Part shown: in pieces, positions 1,586 through 42,669 of the stretch
How the letters are laid out: every line of letters starts with the position of its first letter
Position numbering within the stretch: the first letter of the stretch is position 1
DNA from: Escherichia coli
GTDB lineage: Bacteria > Pseudomonadota > Gammaproteobacteria > Enterobacterales > Enterobacteriaceae
Reading direction: 5' to 3' (one strand)
Assembly: GCF_030013595.1 (NCBI RefSeq)
Contig: NZ_CP122768.1
DNA length: 64,000 nt
The notes under the pieces: generated by a model
What the model was told of the DNA's origin: nothing
The model's database searches: none
The model's input: only the letters and a program-made list of their open reading frames with translations
Translations under genes and position numbers: made by a program

Positions 1586-3130
1586 TTACCCCTGTTGCTG
1601 CGTCGGTTGTTCACTCTGCATCGCGCTCGGCCCCAGACGGGCATATTTCTGCATCAGGTAGACTTCGGCGATTAAGAACAGGGTGTAAAGCCCTACGATC
1701 ATGATCAGTGAGAAAGCCAGTTGTCCTGTGGTTAAAGCGGAGTGCGCGGAGTATGTCGGTAAGATGTCCTGTATCGCCCACGGCTGACGACCAAACTCGG
1801 TCATAAACCACCCGGCTTCAATCGCAATCCACGGCAGCGGCAAACTCCAGAGCGCCATTTTCAGCACCCAGCGATGCTGGTCGATTTTGCCACGCAGCGT
1901 CTGGACAAGCGCAATAAGCATCACCAGTAGCAGCAGGGAACCACAGCCCACCATGATGCGGAAACTCCAGAATACCGGCGCAACCTGAGGTATCGCGCCA
2001 CGCATCGCCGCCTGGTACTGTGCGGCTGTGACATGATTCATATCCGGCGCATAGCGGGAGAGCAACATGCCGTAGCCCAGGTCGCCTTCCAGCTCCCGGA
2101 ATGCCTGCAACATATGCGGCTCTCGATTGCCTTGCGATATTTCCTGCATTAACAGCCAGGCCATACGTCCGCGTTGCAAGCGTGGGTAGGTTTCAGCCAT
2201 CAAATTCTTCAGACCCGGCACGGGTTTATCTAATGAGTGAGTGGCGAGGATCCCTAGCAGCGCGGGAATTTTGATGGCAAAGGCGTTACGCTCTTGATCC
2301 TGTTCCGGCCAGGCAACCACATGGAACGGTGCAGGTGCAGGTTCCGTTTGCCACTCCCCTTCCATCGCCGCCAGTTTTACCGGTTGTACTTGCGCGACTT
2401 CATACGCCGAACTGTCTCCGAGTTGCAGCGTACCGATAATCGCCAGAGTACCGAAGACGGAACCGATGGCAAACGAGCGTAATGCAACATCGCGCTCCCG
2501 TCCGCGCAGTAAATACCAGGCGCTGATCGCCATAATAAACATGGCCCCGGTCACGTAGCCCGCCATTACGGTGTGTACAAATTTCACCTGGCTGACCGGG
2601 TTAAAGACCAGCTCGCTGAAGCTGGTCATTTCCATGCGCAGGGTGTCGATATCAAAATGCGCACCGGTCGGGTATTGCATCCAACCGTTGGCATTCAATA
2701 TCCACAATGCAGAGAGATTTGAACCGAACGCCACCAGCCACGTCACCAGCAGGTGCTGGTATTTATTCAGCCGCTGCCAGCCGAAGAAGAACAGCCCGAC
2801 AAAGGTGGATTCGAGGAAGAAGGCCATTAATGCTTCCATCGCCAGCGGTGCGCCAAAAATATCGCCCACATAGTTGGAATAGAATGACCAGTTAGTACCA
2901 AACTGAAACTCCATGGTCAGGCCGGTAGCCACGCCAAGAGCAAAGTTGATACCGAAGAGCTTACCCCAGAAGCGCGTCATATCGCGGTAGATTGTTTTGC
3001 CGGTGACCACGTAAATGGTTTCCATGATAGCTAGCAAAAAAATCAGCCCCAGGGTAAGGGGTACAAATAAGAAGTGATACAGCGCGGTCAGAGCAAACTG
3101 CCAGCGCGATAAATCAATGACATCCCACAT
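1586..3130 (-). CDS. appC: cytochrome bd-II ubiquinol oxidase subunit I
   Basis: 514-aa ORF beginning [20 protein letters not shown] (second Met of the 516-aa track ORF); CydA-family sequence. Confidence 0.95.

Positions 3131-28023: not shown

Positions 28024-28043
<20 letters not shown>
26724..28043 (-). CDS. C: capsid assembly protease C (GTG start)
   Basis: 1320 nt as in lambda C; starts at GTG giving (M)TAELRNLPHIASMAFNEPLMLEPAYARVF; 20-bp overlap with B as in lambda. Confidence 0.88.
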
Positions 28044-31724
<3,681 letters not shown>

Positions 31725-37583: not shown

Positions 37584-40406
37584 ATGACGGCAAAGTACAT
37601 CAGGGACTGGCAACAACCGCGCCACGCAGTGGGGCGTGAAGGAACGGGGATCCCCGCTCCTGAATCCGCGCTTTCCTCCTGGCTGGATGCCTACCGGGCA
37701 GAGAACGAGCGCCGCCAGGAAATGGCTGATGCGGCGTTCTCCGCCACGCCGCTGGGCAACCTGATTAATAAAAGCCTGGACGCACAGGAAAAACAGGACA
37801 AAACCATCACACTGGCAGGAGACGCCAGAAAACAGGCACGCGGCGCGGTGGATGAAGCCATGGCCTCGCTGCGCCTGCTGCCGTCCTATCTGCGCGATCC
37901 GCTTATTCGCCACCTCTCCTTCCTGCGCAAAAAACAGGAAGCCGATCGTCAGAAAGGAAAAAACGCCAGGCAGGCAGAACGCTATGCGCGTGGGACCCTG
38001 CGCAAAATATTCGAACGTCTGGAGCGCACCGATCACCGCTGGCTGACACCGGGTTATCGCTCCCTTGCCGGACGCGAACGCCTGGACGATTTGCTTTACC
38101 TGCCGCAGCTCAACAAACACCAGATACAGACGCTGGCCACCATGACGGCGGCGATGTTCAGCAGCACCTTCGAAAAACTCTGCGATGGCTTTGGCGCGAC
38201 CGATGGCGAACTGACCATGGATGTAACGCTGAAGGCGTATCAGATGCTGGCCCGCATGGCGTTACACCTGCACATCATGCCTCCACATTATGACGCACTG
38301 ACAACAGACAAAGACCGGAGGAACGAACCGGACACGGAGCTGCTGCCGGGCGCAATCCTTCGCCTGACCTGTGCGGAATGGTGGAAACGCAAACTGTGGC
38401 TGTTACGTTGCGAGTGGCGGGAAGAACAACTCCGCGCCGCCTGTCTGGTTTCCAGAAAAACATCACCCTATCTGAGCCAGGACGCGTTAAGCGAGTTTCG
38501 CGCACACCGCGAGAAAACACGCGATTTCCTGAAAAGTTTCATGCTGGAAAATGAAGACGGGTTCACGATTGATCTCGAGACGGTGTATTACGCGGGAGTA
38601 AGTAACCCGGTTCACCGTAAGGCAGAAATGATGGCCACCATGAAGGGGCTGGAACTTCTGGCCGAAGCCCGTGGCGACAGAGCGGTGTTTCTGACTGTCA
38701 CCTGCCCGTCAAAATACCACGCAACAACGGAGAACGGTCATCCGAATCCCAAATGGAACGGGGCCACCATGCGCGACTCCAGCGATTACCTGGTTAACAC
38801 GTTTTTTGCGACGGTCCGCAAAAAACTGAACCGCGACGGTCTTCGCTGGTATGGCATCCGCACGGTGGAGCCTCACCATGACGGCACTGTGCACTGGCAT
38901 ATGATGGTCTTTGCACATCCGGACGAGATTGAAACCATCGTGTCCCACGTCTGCGATATTGCCATTCAGGAAGACCGCCACGAGCTGGGCGATGATATTA
39001 CTCCGCGTTTTAAAGCGGAGTACGTCGACGGCTCAAAAGGCACGCCAACCAGCTACATCGCCACCTACATCGGAAAGAACCTGGACAGCCGCGCCGTGGA
39101 TGGCATCGCCCCGAAAACGGGCAAGCCACGCGTTGACCACGAAACCGGAAAATCAATGGCCGAGAGCGTGGAGCGCGCCATCGGCTGGGCGCGCCTTCAC
39201 CGGGTCCGCCAGTTCCAGTTCTTTGGCATCCCCTCCCGTCAGGTGTGGCGTGAACTGCGCCGCCTTGCCAGCCAGATGGCACGCAACCCGGAAGGCCCGC
39301 AACGGCTGAAGGATGACGCAATGGATGCAGTGCTCGCTGCCGCTGATGCCGGGTGTTTTGCCTCCTACATTGAAAAACAGGGCGGCGTACTTGTTCCACG
39401 CCAGGACTACCTGATTCGCACCGCCTACGACCTCGCAGATGAGCTGAACGATTACGGCGAACAGAGCGTACAGATTTACGGGATCTGGTCACCACTCATC
39501 GGGGAGTCTTCCCGTGTGTGCACACATCCGGATAACTGGAAGCTGGTAAGACGTAAACCGGAAGCGGAAGACAGCGCCCGCGAAAATGGTTTTGACCTTC
39601 AGGGCGGCCCTGCCGCCCCTTGGACTCGTGGCAATAACTGTCCCCGTGTACAGGAAACGGACAACAACGGGACAGAACAGCCGGAAGAACGGCCAGCACC
39701 GTGGCCGCAGCTCCCTGACGGCGTTGAAGTGAACGAATGGATGCGCTCACTGAAACGGCACGAACGCCGGGCGCTGATGCGTTCGCTTCGTGACAAACAG
39801 GCAAAAAACAGCAGTGATGAAATGCAGAGCTGGACACAGAGCCGCAAACAGCAGCGGCCTTTGCCTGATAACCACGAATTACTCGCTAAAGAATGGCGGG
39901 AGTCTGCTGAATCTCTCGGCCTGCATATCGGTGAACAACAGATGCAGCACCTGTTACGGGGCGGCAGTCTGTACGTTGACGGCAGCATCATTGCACCGCA
40001 GGGATTTGAAATTGTACGCAAACCGGATACCCGCCCGGACAGCCGAATCACGCAGCTCTGGCAGCGCCTGAGCCGTAATCATGGCGTAAGCAGCACGGAG
40101 ATCCGCCATAACCCGGTCGCCAGCTATCTGGCACAGCTGGGGGCATCAGACCCTGAAGCCGCCGCACGCCTGGCATCCACACTTCAGCAGGACCAGAACA
40201 CCATGAAAACACCCGTTACCGTGCTTTCTGACATGCTGCGCGCCATCCGCGACGCAGAGCACGCACAGAGAATCAGTGAAACCACTGAACGCGCCAGCCG
40301 CAAAGCAGACCTGCTGCGGGGTGGCCTGACCAGTGGAAACAAAAAACAGACAGAAACGGGACTCACGAATCCCGCAAATGAGCAAAAAACGCGCAGCGAT
40401 ATATGA
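37584..40406 (+). CDS. A: replication initiation endonuclease, P2 gpA family (rolling-circle, HUH motif)
   Basis: 940-aa ORF with ...WYGIRTVEPHHDGTVHWHMMVF... HxH motif and ...YIATYIGKN... active-site Tyr region typical of P2/186 A proteins. Confidence 0.9.
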   Translation: MTAKYIRDWQQPRHAVGREGTGIPAPESALSSWLDAYRAENERRQEMADAAFSATPLGNLINKSLDAQEKQDKTITLAGDARKQARGAVDEAMASLRLLPSYLRDPLIRHLSFLRKKQEADRQKGKNARQAERYARGTLRKIFERLERTDHRWLTPGYRSLAGRERLDDLLYLPQLNKHQIQTLATMTAAMFSSTFEKLCDGFGATDGELTMDVTLKAYQMLARMALHLHIMPPHYDALTTDKDRRNEPDTELLPGAILRLTCAEWWKRKLWLLRCEWREEQLRAACLVSRKTSPYLSQDALSEFRAHREKTRDFLKSFMLENEDGFTIDLETVYYAGVSNPVHRKAEMMATMKGLELLAEARGDRAVFLTVTCPSKYHATTENGHPNPKWNGATMRDSSDYLVNTFFATVRKKLNRDGLRWYGIRTVEPHHDGTVHWHMMVFAHPDEIETIVSHVCDIAIQEDRHELGDDITPRFKAEYVDGSKGTPTSYIATYIGKNLDSRAVDGIAPKTGKPRVDHETGKSMAESVERAIGWARLHRVRQFQFFGIPSRQVWRELRRLASQMARNPEGPQRLKDDAMDAVLAAADAGCFASYIEKQGGVLVPRQDYLIRTAYDLADELNDYGEQSVQIYGIWSPLIGESSRVCTHPDNWKLVRRKPEAEDSARENGFDLQGGPAAPWTRGNNCPRVQETDNNGTEQPEERPAPWPQLPDGVEVNEWMRSLKRHERRALMRSLRDKQAKNSSDEMQSWTQSRKQQRPLPDNHELLAKEWRESAESLGLHIGEQQMQHLLRGGSLYVDGSIIAPQGFEIVRKPDTRPDSRITQLWQRLSRNHGVSSTEIRHNPVASYLAQLGASDPEAAARLASTLQQDQNTMKTPVTVLSDMLRAIRDAEHAQRISETTERASRKADLLRGGLTSGNKKQTETGLTNPANEQKTRSDI

Positions 40407-40451
40407 AGCGCGCACAAAACAGGCAAAAACGGGATTTCAGAATCCCGTAAA
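40354..40451. repeat. two 25-bp dyad-containing direct repeats straddling the A stop codon, upstream of the parM-like gene
   Basis: AAACGGGACTCACGAATCCCGCAAA (40354..40378) and AAACGGGATTTCAGAATCCCGTAAA (40427..40451); each contains CGGGA-N8-TCCCG; 73-bp centre-to-centre. Confidence 0.6.
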
Positions 40452-40482
40452 CGATTAATTAATCAACATAAGGAAAAGCGAC

Positions 40483-41442
40483 ATGAAAATTTGTATCGAC
40501 GACGGCTCCACCAACATCAAGCTGGCATGGACTGAGAACGGCGAACGCCGCAACGCCATCAGCCCGAACAGCTTCAAGTCGGAATGGTCTGCGCCGTTCG
40601 GCGGCACGCAGCCCGCGAACTACATGCTTGATGGCGTGCGCTATGGTTTTGATCCGGTCAGCGATCGCTTTGTCCAGACGACCGACACGCAATACCAGTA
40701 CAGCGATGTAAATGTCATTGCCATTCATCACGCGCTGGTCAAATCAGGCATCACGCCACAGGAGGTGGATGTGGTTGTCACCCTGCCACTGAGCGAGTAT
40801 TTCGACACAAACGCACAGCCGGACATGGCCAACATCAACCGCAAAAAAGCGAACGTTATGCGCCCGGTGGAGTACCAGAACGGCGAAGCATTCACTATCC
40901 GTAACGTGCGGGTTATGCCTGAATCCATTCCGGCTGGCTTTAAAGCACTGGCTGACATGAGTCCGTTTGAATCCCTGCTGATTGTGGATTTAGGTGGAAC
41001 CACGCTGGATGTGGCAAAGGTTCAGGGACAACTGGCAGGTATCAGCCAGGTGTTTTGCGATCCACACGTAGGCGTTTCCCTGATGGCCGATGCAGTACTG
41101 TCGGTGATGGCCACTAACGGTATGCGTACCAGTCACCACATCGCCAATACCATTATCGAACATCGCCATGATGAAGCCTGGCTGCGCCAGCACATCCACA
41201 ATGACGCGCATTACGCCAGCCTGATGGCGGTTATTCGTGAAAAGGAAGAAACACTGAAACAACGCGTGATCCGCGCGCTGGCGGGTTTTTCGGGTTACGG
41301 GCGGGTGATGGTTGTCGGTGGCGGGGCGGAGATTGTGGCACCCGCTATCCGCGAAGCCTGCGGAGTTAATGCGACTTTCATCGCGGACGGGGTGCCACAG
41401 TTTGCTCTGGTTAATGGGCTGTACGCAATGGACAAGGAGTAA
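40483..41442 (+). CDS. parM: ParM/StbA-family actin-like ATPase
   Basis: 319-aa ORF MKICIDDGSTNIKLAW...NSFKSEW...YSDVNVIAIHHAL...VMPESIPAG...IVDLGGTTLD...VVGGGAE...LVNG, alignable throughout with R1/R100 ParM/StbA. Confidence 0.85.
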   Translation: MKICIDDGSTNIKLAWTENGERRNAISPNSFKSEWSAPFGGTQPANYMLDGVRYGFDPVSDRFVQTTDTQYQYSDVNVIAIHHALVKSGITPQEVDVVVTLPLSEYFDTNAQPDMANINRKKANVMRPVEYQNGEAFTIRNVRVMPESIPAGFKALADMSPFESLLIVDLGGTTLDVAKVQGQLAGISQVFCDPHVGVSLMADAVLSVMATNGMRTSHHIANTIIEHRHDEAWLRQHIHNDAHYASLMAVIREKEETLKQRVIRALAGFSGYGRVMVVGGGAEIVAPAIREACGVNATFIADGVPQFALVNGLYAMDKE

Positions 41443-41446
41443 ACCA

Positions 41447-41758
41447 ATGACGACACCAACCAGACGGATAAGTTTCTATCTGAAGCCCGCCGCCGTCAAG
41501 AACGAAGGCGAAGCATGCGCCTGGCTGGACAGCCTTACACCAGAAGCCCGCAAAAGCGGCCAACGTGTGGCTTTTCTGGCCGGGCTGGCACTTCTGAAAA
41601 TGAATCCGGCAGAGGCTTACCGACTGGCTGCATGGGCTGACGATGAGGCGTTATCAGTGACACAAACCAGGACAGAACGCCCCGCGTCACAGCCAGTACC
41701 AACCACACAGATAACCAGTCGGATGGCCGGAAATATCAGGGCGTTATTTCCCGAATAA
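41447..41758 (+). CDS. parR: ParR/StbB-like adaptor protein (putative ribbon-helix-helix)
   Basis: 103-aa ORF MTTPTRRISFYLKPAAVKNEGEACAWLDSLTPEARKSGQRVAFLAGLALL...; AAGGAG 7 nt upstream, 4 bp after parM stop; N-terminal pattern resembles R1 ParR. Confidence 0.65.
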   Translation: MTTPTRRISFYLKPAAVKNEGEACAWLDSLTPEARKSGQRVAFLAGLALLKMNPAEAYRLAAWADDEALSVTQTRTERPASQPVPTTQITSRMAGNIRALFPE

Positions 41759-41786
41759 CACAACATCAGGGCGCATCCGCCCTGAT
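41735..41786. repeat. ATCAGGGCG direct repeat plus a 9-bp-stem hairpin at the parR 3' end
   Basis: ATCAGGGCG at 41735..41743 and 41765..41773; inverted copy CGCCCTGAT at 41778..41786 forms a hairpin with a CATC loop. Confidence 0.55.
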
Positions 41787-41821
41787 GACTTTAATCCGGG
41801 AACATAAACAAGGGGGACACA

Positions 41822-42154
41822 ATGCAACACATTGACAGAGAAAAAGCGCAGCGACTGATTGAGCGGATGGAAGCGCTGGCGAAAGAAGAAAATGTCAACA
41901 TCCAAAAAATAGCTGAATGTGGCCAGATAGTTCTTCGTCGTGAAAAAGACCTCAAACAACTGATGTCTGGCGAAACCAGCAAAACATGGACTTCAGGCGA
42001 GGAGACGATTTATTGCAGCTTCTGCAATAAATCTCAGTACGAAGTCACAAAGGTGATTGCCGGACCGTCTGTTTACATCTGCAATGAGTGCGTGGATTTG
42101 TGCAATGAAATTATCAGGAGAGAAGTGACAGACAAAAAGGGAAAAAACGCATGA
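41822..42154 (+). CDS. ClpX N-terminal zinc-binding-domain homolog with N-terminal coiled-coil extension
   Basis: 110-aa ORF; C-terminal ...[40 protein letters not shown] is near-identical in pattern to the E. coli ClpX Cys4 zinc-binding domain ([40 protein letters not shown]); AGGGGG RBS. Confidence 0.8.
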
Positions 42155-42489
42155 ACAGAAAACAAAAACAAGAGTTGAAATACTTTTTACGTAAAGAAAT
42201 TGCCAGGCTTGAAGATGCAGAATCACAATCATCAGAAATTCCGTTCGGAATGGATATCAACGACGCCCGTATGCTCCAGGCATACCGCATAGCTCAGGCT
42301 GCACTACAGGCAAAACCGTCAGATGGACTGGTTAGAGCAGTACGATTCTATGAACTGGTAAAGCGTGAGAATCCGCCAGCCGAAACCGGAGCATGGAAAG
42401 ACGCTGTTGACTGGGTACTCAAAGAGGCTTGTCAGGTTGTAAACACTGGCATCAAAGGAGACCTAGCCCAGCCTGCATCAAAGCTATAG
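42151..42489 (+). CDS. hypothetical protein translationally coupled to the ClpX-domain gene
   Basis: 112-aa [29 protein letters not shown]...; ATG overlaps the upstream stop (ATGA); followed by a strong terminator. Confidence 0.55.
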
Positions 42490-42498
42490 AAATGAGCC

Positions 42499-42526
42499 AA
42501 AACGCCCTCTTCCAGGGCGTTTATTT
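42499..42526 (+). terminator. rho-independent terminator closing the accessory island
   Basis: AAAACGCCCT-CTTCC-AGGGCGTTT followed by ATTTC. Confidence 0.75.
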
Positions 42527-42529
42527 CAA

Positions 42530-42669
42530 TGCACAATAGTGCACAAATTTGCACAATTTTTTTGAACGAATTTTTGCCCTTCCGGCCCGCGTGACAGTTG
42601 GATCCGTCAAGGATCCGTGCGTGCACAAAAAAACGCGCTTTTTCTGCGCGCAGGTGACGGGGGAACAGC
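42530..42669. other. candidate cos/packaging region of the P2-like phage
   Basis: Non-coding interval before portal Q where P2 has cos; three TGCACAA repeats at exact 10-bp phasing (42530, 42540, 42550) plus a fourth at 42622; GGATCCGT at 42600 and 42611; palindrome CTGCGCGCAG 42644..42653; GGTGACGGGGGAACAGC (42653..42669) loosely resembles the P2 cohesive end. Confidence 0.4.

Follow-up and report, generated by a model that had tools for sequence, protein, structure and literature searches.

The right half of the 64,000-nt stretch of Escherichia coli contig NZ_CP122768.1 analyzed here (the window, numbered from its first letter) is a P88-like prophage (Xuanwuvirus, Peduoviridae, P2 family), in which two paired dyad elements straddle the stop codon of the replication gene A, directly upstream of the genes for a ParM-like and a ParR-like protein. 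Positions 39800–42600 are 100% identical to Escherichia phage P88, and in this region a window position equals the P88 position plus 31627. After an early operon come, in order, the genes for A, ParM, ParR, a protein with a ClpX-type zinc finger, and a hypothetical protein; beyond them is a portal/terminase pair in convergent orientation. The features at and around the A/parM junction, which we consider a candidate parC-type partition site, are as follows.

37584–40406, plus strand: gene A, replication endonuclease (Phage_GPA), 940 aa, whose last ~17 codons run through repeat unit 1 and the inter-unit core
39612–39643, plus strand: probable origin of rolling-circle replication, matched to the nick site of P2 A by protein alignment and DNA identity
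40336–40470, no strand: whole candidate parC, with A-tracts phased at 10.5 bp over both units, up to the parM ribosome-binding site
40340–40381, no strand: repeat unit 1, 42 nt, consisting of the A-rich lead CAAAAAACAGACAGAAA and dyad 1, within the last codons of gene A
40356–40375: dyad 1 stem, core GGGAct-CACG-AATCCC
40382–40412, no strand: inter-unit core, 31 bp, holding the gene A stop codon (40404–40406) and the TA-rich patch GATATAT
40413–40454, no strand: repeat unit 2, 42 nt, consisting of the A-rich lead CACAAAACAGGCAAAA and dyad 2, in the parM leader
40429–40448: dyad 2 stem, core GGGATT-TCAG-AATCCC
40483–41442, plus strand: parM, actin-like partition ATPase, 319 aa (PF06406, 1.8e-82; PF21523, 1.3e-68)
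41447–41758, plus strand: parR, adaptor and presumed centromere-binding protein, 103 aa (PF10784, 1.6e-24)

The two 25-mers, dyad 1 (40354–40378, AAACGGGACTCACGAATCCCGCAAA) and dyad 2 (40427–40451, AAACGGGATTTCAGAATCCCGTAAA), lie 73 bp apart at exactly the coordinates given in the original prediction, one in the last codons of gene A and the other in the parM leader. The CGGGA-N8-TCCCG motif that it had noted in both is found twice in the window against an expectation of 0.08, and two or more matches occurred in none of 100 shuffles. The leader, put at 77 bp in that prediction, is one nucleotide shorter, as the gene A stop codon (40404–40406) and the parM start (40483) enclose an intergenic gap of 76 bp. 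Analysis with a repeat finder embeds the dyads in 42-nt direct repeats (40340–40381 and 40413–40454) that are 79% identical and start 73 bp, or seven helical turns, apart; the repeat extends beyond 25 nt because an A-rich stretch lies 5' of each dyad. Based on the comparison of variants described below, the conserved dyad core is GGGAtt-N4-aaTCCC rather than CGGGA-N8-TCCCG. The array contains four AATCCCG-like half-sites, arranged as two inverted pairs 73 bp apart, and ends about 12 bp 5' of the parM Shine-Dalgarno sequence. There is no third full copy of the repeat in the 64-kb window or in the complete P88 genome. The further copies of CGGGA-N8-TCCCG that the original prediction had suggested seeking outside the window amount, in the complete P88 genome, to one unrelated match in the tape-measure gene, which has no ATT/AAT inner arms and is no more than chance would produce.

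The 319-aa protein aligns with the R1 ParM structures (PDB 1MWK) over residues 2–316 (9e-93), with about half of the residues identical, and parR starts 4 nt past the parM stop codon. ParR aligns with R100 ParR in its N-terminal region and in a C-terminal KKN..LFP tail, with ~34% identity over 56 aa, and the DNA-facing strand residues differ. A model of the ParR monomer (pLDDT 75) begins with an extended segment at the N-terminus and continues in helices that are compatible with a ribbon-helix-helix fold plus a tail; a Foldseek search of this model against the PDB gave no significant match, and a phmmer search of the ParR sequence against the PDB gave no match to a ParR. Judged by homology, the 319-aa protein is a true R1-type ParM and the 103-aa protein a true ParR. 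The E. coli and Hafnia copies of ParM are 95% identical in amino acid sequence, and the DNA of these copies is ~75% identical. Approximately 47 ParR variants share an identical N-terminal DNA-reading segment, with the differences confined to the linker.

The middle linker of ParR (residues ~65–92) is hypervariable, such that the alleles are ~52% identical overall versus 99% conservation of ParM. The invariant parts of the alleles are the N-terminal MTTPTRRISFYLKP/QRxAFLAGLAL region and a C-terminal NIxAxFPE tail, and mosaic breakpoints occur ~55 bp into parR.

A search of 5426 complete E. coli genomes located the A/parM junction with its dyad pair in 1303 (about a quarter), almost always on the chromosome, and the carriers include O157:H7, O55:H7, O104:H4, ST131, and E2348/69. 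Variation was compared in 66 distinct variants, drawn from 80 IMG/VR loci and others, and some counts used 57 distinct sequences. Across these 57–66 variants the cores GGGATT(T) and AATCC vary little or not at all; the polymorphic positions are the dyad centre, the outermost arm positions, and the inter-unit core, which is the most polymorphic stretch of the array. The two-unit state is found in 80 of the 82 loci examined and in four other genera, and both dyads are kept in the copies from E. albertii, Citrobacter, Cronobacter, and Hafnia, with the spacing of 73 bp preserved in the last three. In the Hafnia copy, the 73-bp spacing is exact at ~75% DNA identity, the flanks are rewritten, and the palindromic cores, their helical phasing, and the A-rich lead of each unit are retained. 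The N-terminal DNA-binding part of ParR is, like the dyad cores, invariant across alleles, so protein and site are co-conserved. The Hafnia and Cronobacter copies are the furthest informative relatives, because the IMG/VR, phage, plasmid, and species-representative scans found little beyond them: IMG/VR contains ParM relatives at 99–100% only, a phage tblastn search returned only Xuanwuvirus and phage D6 (48%), and the ParR homologues are nearly all from Escherichia.

Several of these loci bear on whether the dyads belong to gene A or to parMR. The C-terminal extension of gene A that holds dyad 1 is absent from other P2-family A proteins, for which the alignments stop near residue 796–802 of 940. 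We found no close relatives of gene A without parMR; identity drops to ~42% in the next A proteins, which end without the C-terminal ~140 aa. Polymorphisms in the gene A tail are not enriched at third codon positions, and by this pattern the tail over dyad 1 is not under coding constraint. The reading frame also ends at different places relative to the array. In Hafnia, the gene A stop falls inside the centre of dyad 1 (GGGATTCATGAATCCC), and in a natural variant from IMG/VR (L081) gene A ends past dyad 2 (...KTGFKNPVTD*), 24 nt before parM. Moreover, in an IMG/VR prophage (L032) the whole C-terminal domain of A (39821–40341; L032:1582–2359) is replaced by unrelated sequence, and homology to the window restarts at 40342, within the first bases of unit 1. 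Taken across these loci, the comparisons indicate that the dyads act as a conserved element in cis whose linkage is to parMR and not to gene A.

The array is also distinguished by its A-tracts. The periodicity power of AAA at 10.5 bp, a sequence proxy for curvature, is 1.07 in 40336–40470, which ranks first among 2555 segments of 135 nt across the 64 kb and is matched by 7 of 2000 shuffles. The same 10.5-bp peak is found in R100 parC (12 of 2000 shuffles), in the Hafnia homologue (9 of 2000), and in the region upstream of an IncL/M parM (0 of 2000). When the P88 array was aligned directly to R100 parC and to the regions upstream of the IncFII, IncL/M, and D6 parM genes, the comparison showed that the iteron sequence differs in each lineage and that the common features are limited to the phasing, the two-block layout, and a motif proximal to the Shine-Dalgarno sequence. 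R1-style iterons, two sets of five 11-bp repeats, were not detected, as the repeat finder returned only the 42-nt pair and the palindromes, and the R100 iterons (ACCC-type, with an A/C-rich strand) are not present in the prophage array. The parM lineages of IncFII, IncL/M, and phage D6 each have their own phased repeats, so a lineage-specific repeat is expected here. In an IncL/M plasmid locus (L090, 326–428), the repeat blocks upstream of parM are also 73 bp apart, start to start, with sequences unrelated to those of P88.

We therefore propose, with moderate confidence and from sequence comparison, that the two dyads form the core of a parC-type centromere, and possibly an operator or roadblock, for the type II ParM/ParR system of this prophage. 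Binding by ParR, partition activity, and any regulatory effect are inferred by analogy with R1, according to which ParR dimers would bind the four AATCCCG-like half-sites through their N-terminal ribbon-helix-helix part and probably also contact the phased A-rich flanks. The intrinsically bent array of ~115–135 bp would then wrap into a nucleoprotein complex, from which the conserved C-terminal tails of ParR could capture the ends of ParM filaments, such that circular phage DNA would be pushed apart or positioned. Because the array separates gene A from parM, the complex, once bound, could also limit expression of parMR, whether by acting as an operator or by blocking read-through that arrives from the early operon.

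The original prediction had suggested a centromere/operator overlapping the par promoter, as in R1. The centromere part of this proposal is supported circumstantially by gene identity, position, conservation, co-inheritance with parMR, and the phased A-tracts. The promoter part fares less well: a consensus scan of 39500–42600 found no promoter except at 42200, and a relaxed scan returned only 8/12 matches, one of which places a -35 element at 40436 in the centre of dyad 2 and a -10 element at 40458. It may be that parMR is simply read through from the early operon.

A number of observations weigh against a centromere. The arguments for it are all positional or comparative, and there is no consensus sigma-70 promoter in or adjoining the array, so that an R1-style operator role is no more than possible. 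Unlike R1, with its ten direct 11-bp iterons, the prophage has units that each carry a 16–18-bp palindrome, and both dyads also match the pattern of a hairpin plus T-run on the minus strand. Arm positions often change singly, with A40429G in 25 and C40446T in 16 of the 66 variants. One natural variant, L081, has a single unit, and one remnant, L003, retains parMR but neither dyad. The family is phylogenetically narrow, as a scan of species-representative genomes gave only 3 loci, and its nearest plasmid ParM is 53% identical, plasmid tblastn matches falling from 99% straight to 53%; because of this narrowness, conservation may partly mirror recent common ancestry. Finally, all ParR alleles share one N-terminal DNA-reading segment, so co-variation between ParR alleles and dyads is unusable as a test of protein against site.

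Compared with window positions 40373–40445, L081 is short of precisely one 73-bp unit, which was removed when the two repeats recombined. L003 (NZ_CP085183.1, E. coli EC7518, locus 2650–3040) is a degraded prophage in which a DUF4761 gene is fused straight onto the parM leader; a deletion has removed gene A and both dyads, but parM and parR are intact.

Other explanations of the dyad pair must be weighed against the centromere. Since the P2 origin is in the 3' part of gene A and dyad 1 is at the 3' end of A, the dyads could be all or part of a replication origin recognised or nicked by the A protein, as the original prediction had also entertained; we rejected this role, which we consider extremely improbable. 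The annotated P2 nick site (rep_origin 29892) lies inside P2 gene A (28034–30319), and alignment of the A proteins maps the nick region to residues ~675–687 of P88 A, corresponding to window positions 39612–39643, about 750 bp upstream of the dyads and without sequence similarity to them. Within this mapped region, GCCCCTTGGACTCGTGGCAATAACTGTCC is hyper-conserved and has nothing in common with the dyads: it is a 29-mer 100% identical in P88, the Hafnia relative, Fels-2, and Yersinia phage MLG42, whereas comparison with the P2 sequence shows 7 differences in 32 positions. The A proteins of phages with an identical GCCCCTTGGACTCGTGGCAATAACTGTCC are only ~42% identical, and the Hafnia relative has ~75% overall DNA identity. 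Because the DNA is identical despite such diverged A proteins, 39612–39643 has the hallmark of a cis site under conservation and is probably where rolling-circle replication of the prophage starts, and it is there, rather than at the A/parM junction, that the P88 origin should be sought. The P2 origin is found in the 3' part of the same gene family; the dyads are in a lineage-specific tail that other P2-family A proteins lack, and in L032 they remain with parMR where the A C-terminal domain is swapped. Inspection by eye found no IHF, DnaA-box, or P2 late-promoter (TGT-N12-ACA) motifs. That the centromere and origin roles are linked is speculation.

Three further explanations take the dyads as transcript signals or as a neutral repeat. 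The dyads might act as intrinsic terminators on the minus strand, stopping leftward transcripts antisense to gene A, or as a terminator-promoter-terminator module for a tiny antisense RNA. On that strand both form 8-pair hairpins (about -10.5 kcal/mol) with T-rich tails and are listed by a terminator scan, the A-rich leads (the minus-strand T-run) are conserved in Hafnia, and the sequence separating the dyads contains a weak match to a promoter, TTGCCT-17-TATATC (8/12), whose location is shared by P88 and Hafnia. This match occupies 40398–40426 on the minus strand of the window and 3465–3487 in L087; with dyad 1 as terminator, it would, speculatively, yield an antisense RNA of ~50 nt. We nevertheless regard termination as quite unlikely. 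Although Rho-independent terminators likewise consist of a short G+C-containing hairpin and a T-rich tail, the resemblance holds for the minus strand only, which is the wrong one for both flanking genes, and the plus strand of the dyads has no U-run. No minus-strand gene or consensus promoter lies within 2.5 kb downstream on that strand. The T-run beside dyad 2 erodes (A40429G in 25 and A40425G in 11 of 66 variants, leaving CUUUCGCC), the dyad 1 stem is followed by just two U, and the common changes in dyad 2 create A.C mismatches on the minus strand with no compensatory pairs. The Rfam 15 covariance models gave no matches at E<=1 on either strand of 39900–41000, and termination assigns no role to the exact 73-bp spacing or the 10.5-bp phasing. 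Very unlikely, too, is a function as plus-strand RNA hairpins controlling mRNA stability, processing, or parM translation, despite the apparent co-transcription of A and parM, with no terminator or promoter between them, and folds of -7.2 kcal/mol for dyad 1 and -10.7 kcal/mol for dyad 2 (z about -3). Of the changes, two that are common in dyad 2 (A40429G and C40446T) are G.U-compatible on the plus strand, but the frequent ones in dyad 1 (C40362 and C40375) are G.U-compatible on the minus strand; as they point in opposite ways, neither strand is favoured. The 57 distinct sequences give no covariation of paired bases in favour of an RNA hairpin, whichever strand is considered, with compensatory change in 0 of 16 pairs and a covariation score no better than that of shuffles. 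On the plus strand, dyad 2 makes a good hairpin, but dyad 1 of the window is weak, with only 5 pairs and an 8-nt loop, 15 of 57 variants lose pair 31–38, and Cronobacter dyad 2 contains an internal A.A and an outer C.A mismatch. The Shine-Dalgarno sequence is 22 nt downstream and occluded by neither hairpin, and the phased A-tracts and fixed spacing are left unexplained. In addition, the symmetry often includes the central bases (TTCATGAA, TTTAAAAA), for which a loop has no requirement; such symmetry, together with the fixed helical spacing, is more in keeping with a protein-binding site on double-stranded DNA than with a loop in RNA. Decidedly improbable, finally, is that the pair is a tandem duplication of 73 bp without function, or else a conserved linker whose sole effect, at a mosaic boundary, is to aid module exchange. 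The units are direct repeats, L081 has exactly one, and mosaic junctions occur at the start of unit 1 (L032) and near the 5' end of parR. A neutral duplication would, however, be expected to decay or collapse, yet two units persist in nearly all loci and across genera as noted above, the units have diverged to 79% identity with the same core positions fixed in both, and the cores and phasing survive in Hafnia despite the rewritten flanks.

We also observed several features that are separate from the array. Six nucleotides past the parR stop codon is a 10-pair, G+C-rich hairpin (41764–41787, CATCAGGGCG-CATC-CGCCCTGATG), which is terminator-like on the minus strand, whereas its T-run on the plus strand is short; the parMR unit may end here. 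A stretch of ~140 bp (~42319–42461, in the ORF 42151–42489) has DNA matches of 88–93% in numerous unrelated phages, among them T7-like phages, lambdoid phages, and large myoviruses, and in dozens of plasmids of ~40–146 kb, always annotated as a hypothetical protein, and looks like a widely exchanged small module. A complete P88-like genome with an integrase (L094, NZ_CP148288.1) is on record as a circular plasmid (34.5 kb) from one E. coli isolate, representing either an excised replicating form caught by the assembly or a true episomal state.

If ParR binds the array, the centromere reading would define the cis site of an apparently uncharacterised ParMRC system, for which our literature searches found no published study, and would provide a compact (~115 bp), four-half-site type II centromere to set against the ten-iteron parC of R1. 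The carrier is one of the commonest E. coli prophage families. As a broader and rather doubtful extension, the ParMRC cassette, with its minimal centromere of four half-sites joined to the 3' end of the gene for the rolling-circle initiator, could be an early-operon function, positioning or separating excised, replicating genomes of P2-type phages (as AlpAC does for CGP3 and SrpMRC for SXT), and not a relic of plasmid maintenance; a ParR-parC complex between A and parM would then couple read-through from the replication gene to partition-gene dosage. If this hypothesis is correct, roughly a quarter of complete E. coli genomes contain an actin-based system for handling phage DNA. The array also raises the question of why an integrating phage that replicates by the rolling-circle mechanism keeps an actin-like segregation machine under strong purifying selection.

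The element itself is ordinary in kind; what is unusual is its host, an integrating P2-like prophage. Among its closest known counterparts, R1 parC is a strongly curved 159-bp site in which two sets of five 11-bp iterons surround a 39-bp core containing the promoter, and each iteron block is bound by ParR (PMC2241845). Like R1 and R100, the prophage has a cis site immediately 5' of parM in which a short core is flanked by two blocks of repeats and A-tracts are phased at 10.5 bp, its ParM is alignable over the full length, and its ParR belongs to the same Pfam family (PF10784). As in R100 parC, the array ends just before a leader motif of the CATAAGGA type upstream of parM. The dimensions differ, as R1 has two sets of five iterons around 39 bp and the prophage two units of 42 nt around 31 bp, and where the par promoter of R1 sits in the core, the 31-bp core of the prophage has no consensus promoter. 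Moreover, the prophage site overlaps the 3' end of the upstream gene, and its carrier is an integrating P2-like phage, whereas R1 and R100 are plasmids.

In its location on a normally integrated element, the locus is similar to srpMRC, the type II partition locus of the SXT/R391 integrative conjugative elements (PMC4489591). The srpMRC centromere is small, being made up of just four short repeats, some direct and some inverted, within the 5' UTR of the gene for the actin-like protein, and its promoter, which lies outside the centromere, is switched on together with the excision and replication functions (PMC4489591). In contrast to the prophage proteins, SrpR has no recognisable homology to ParR and SrpM belongs to another branch of the ParM family, and the sequences are unrelated; binding and stabilisation by srpMRC have been shown experimentally, whereas for the prophage locus both are proposed from sequence. 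Prophage CGP3 of Corynebacterium glutamicum similarly encodes an actin-like filament protein and an adaptor, in its AlpA/AlpC/alpS system (PMC5539076). The CGP3 adaptor binds repeats upstream of its own operon, and the system acts on excised, replicating phage DNA (PMC5539076). It differs from the P88 locus in belonging to another actin-like family, with an unrelated adaptor, a short TTAAnnG repeat as alpS, and a Gram-positive host, and there is no sequence relationship between the two.

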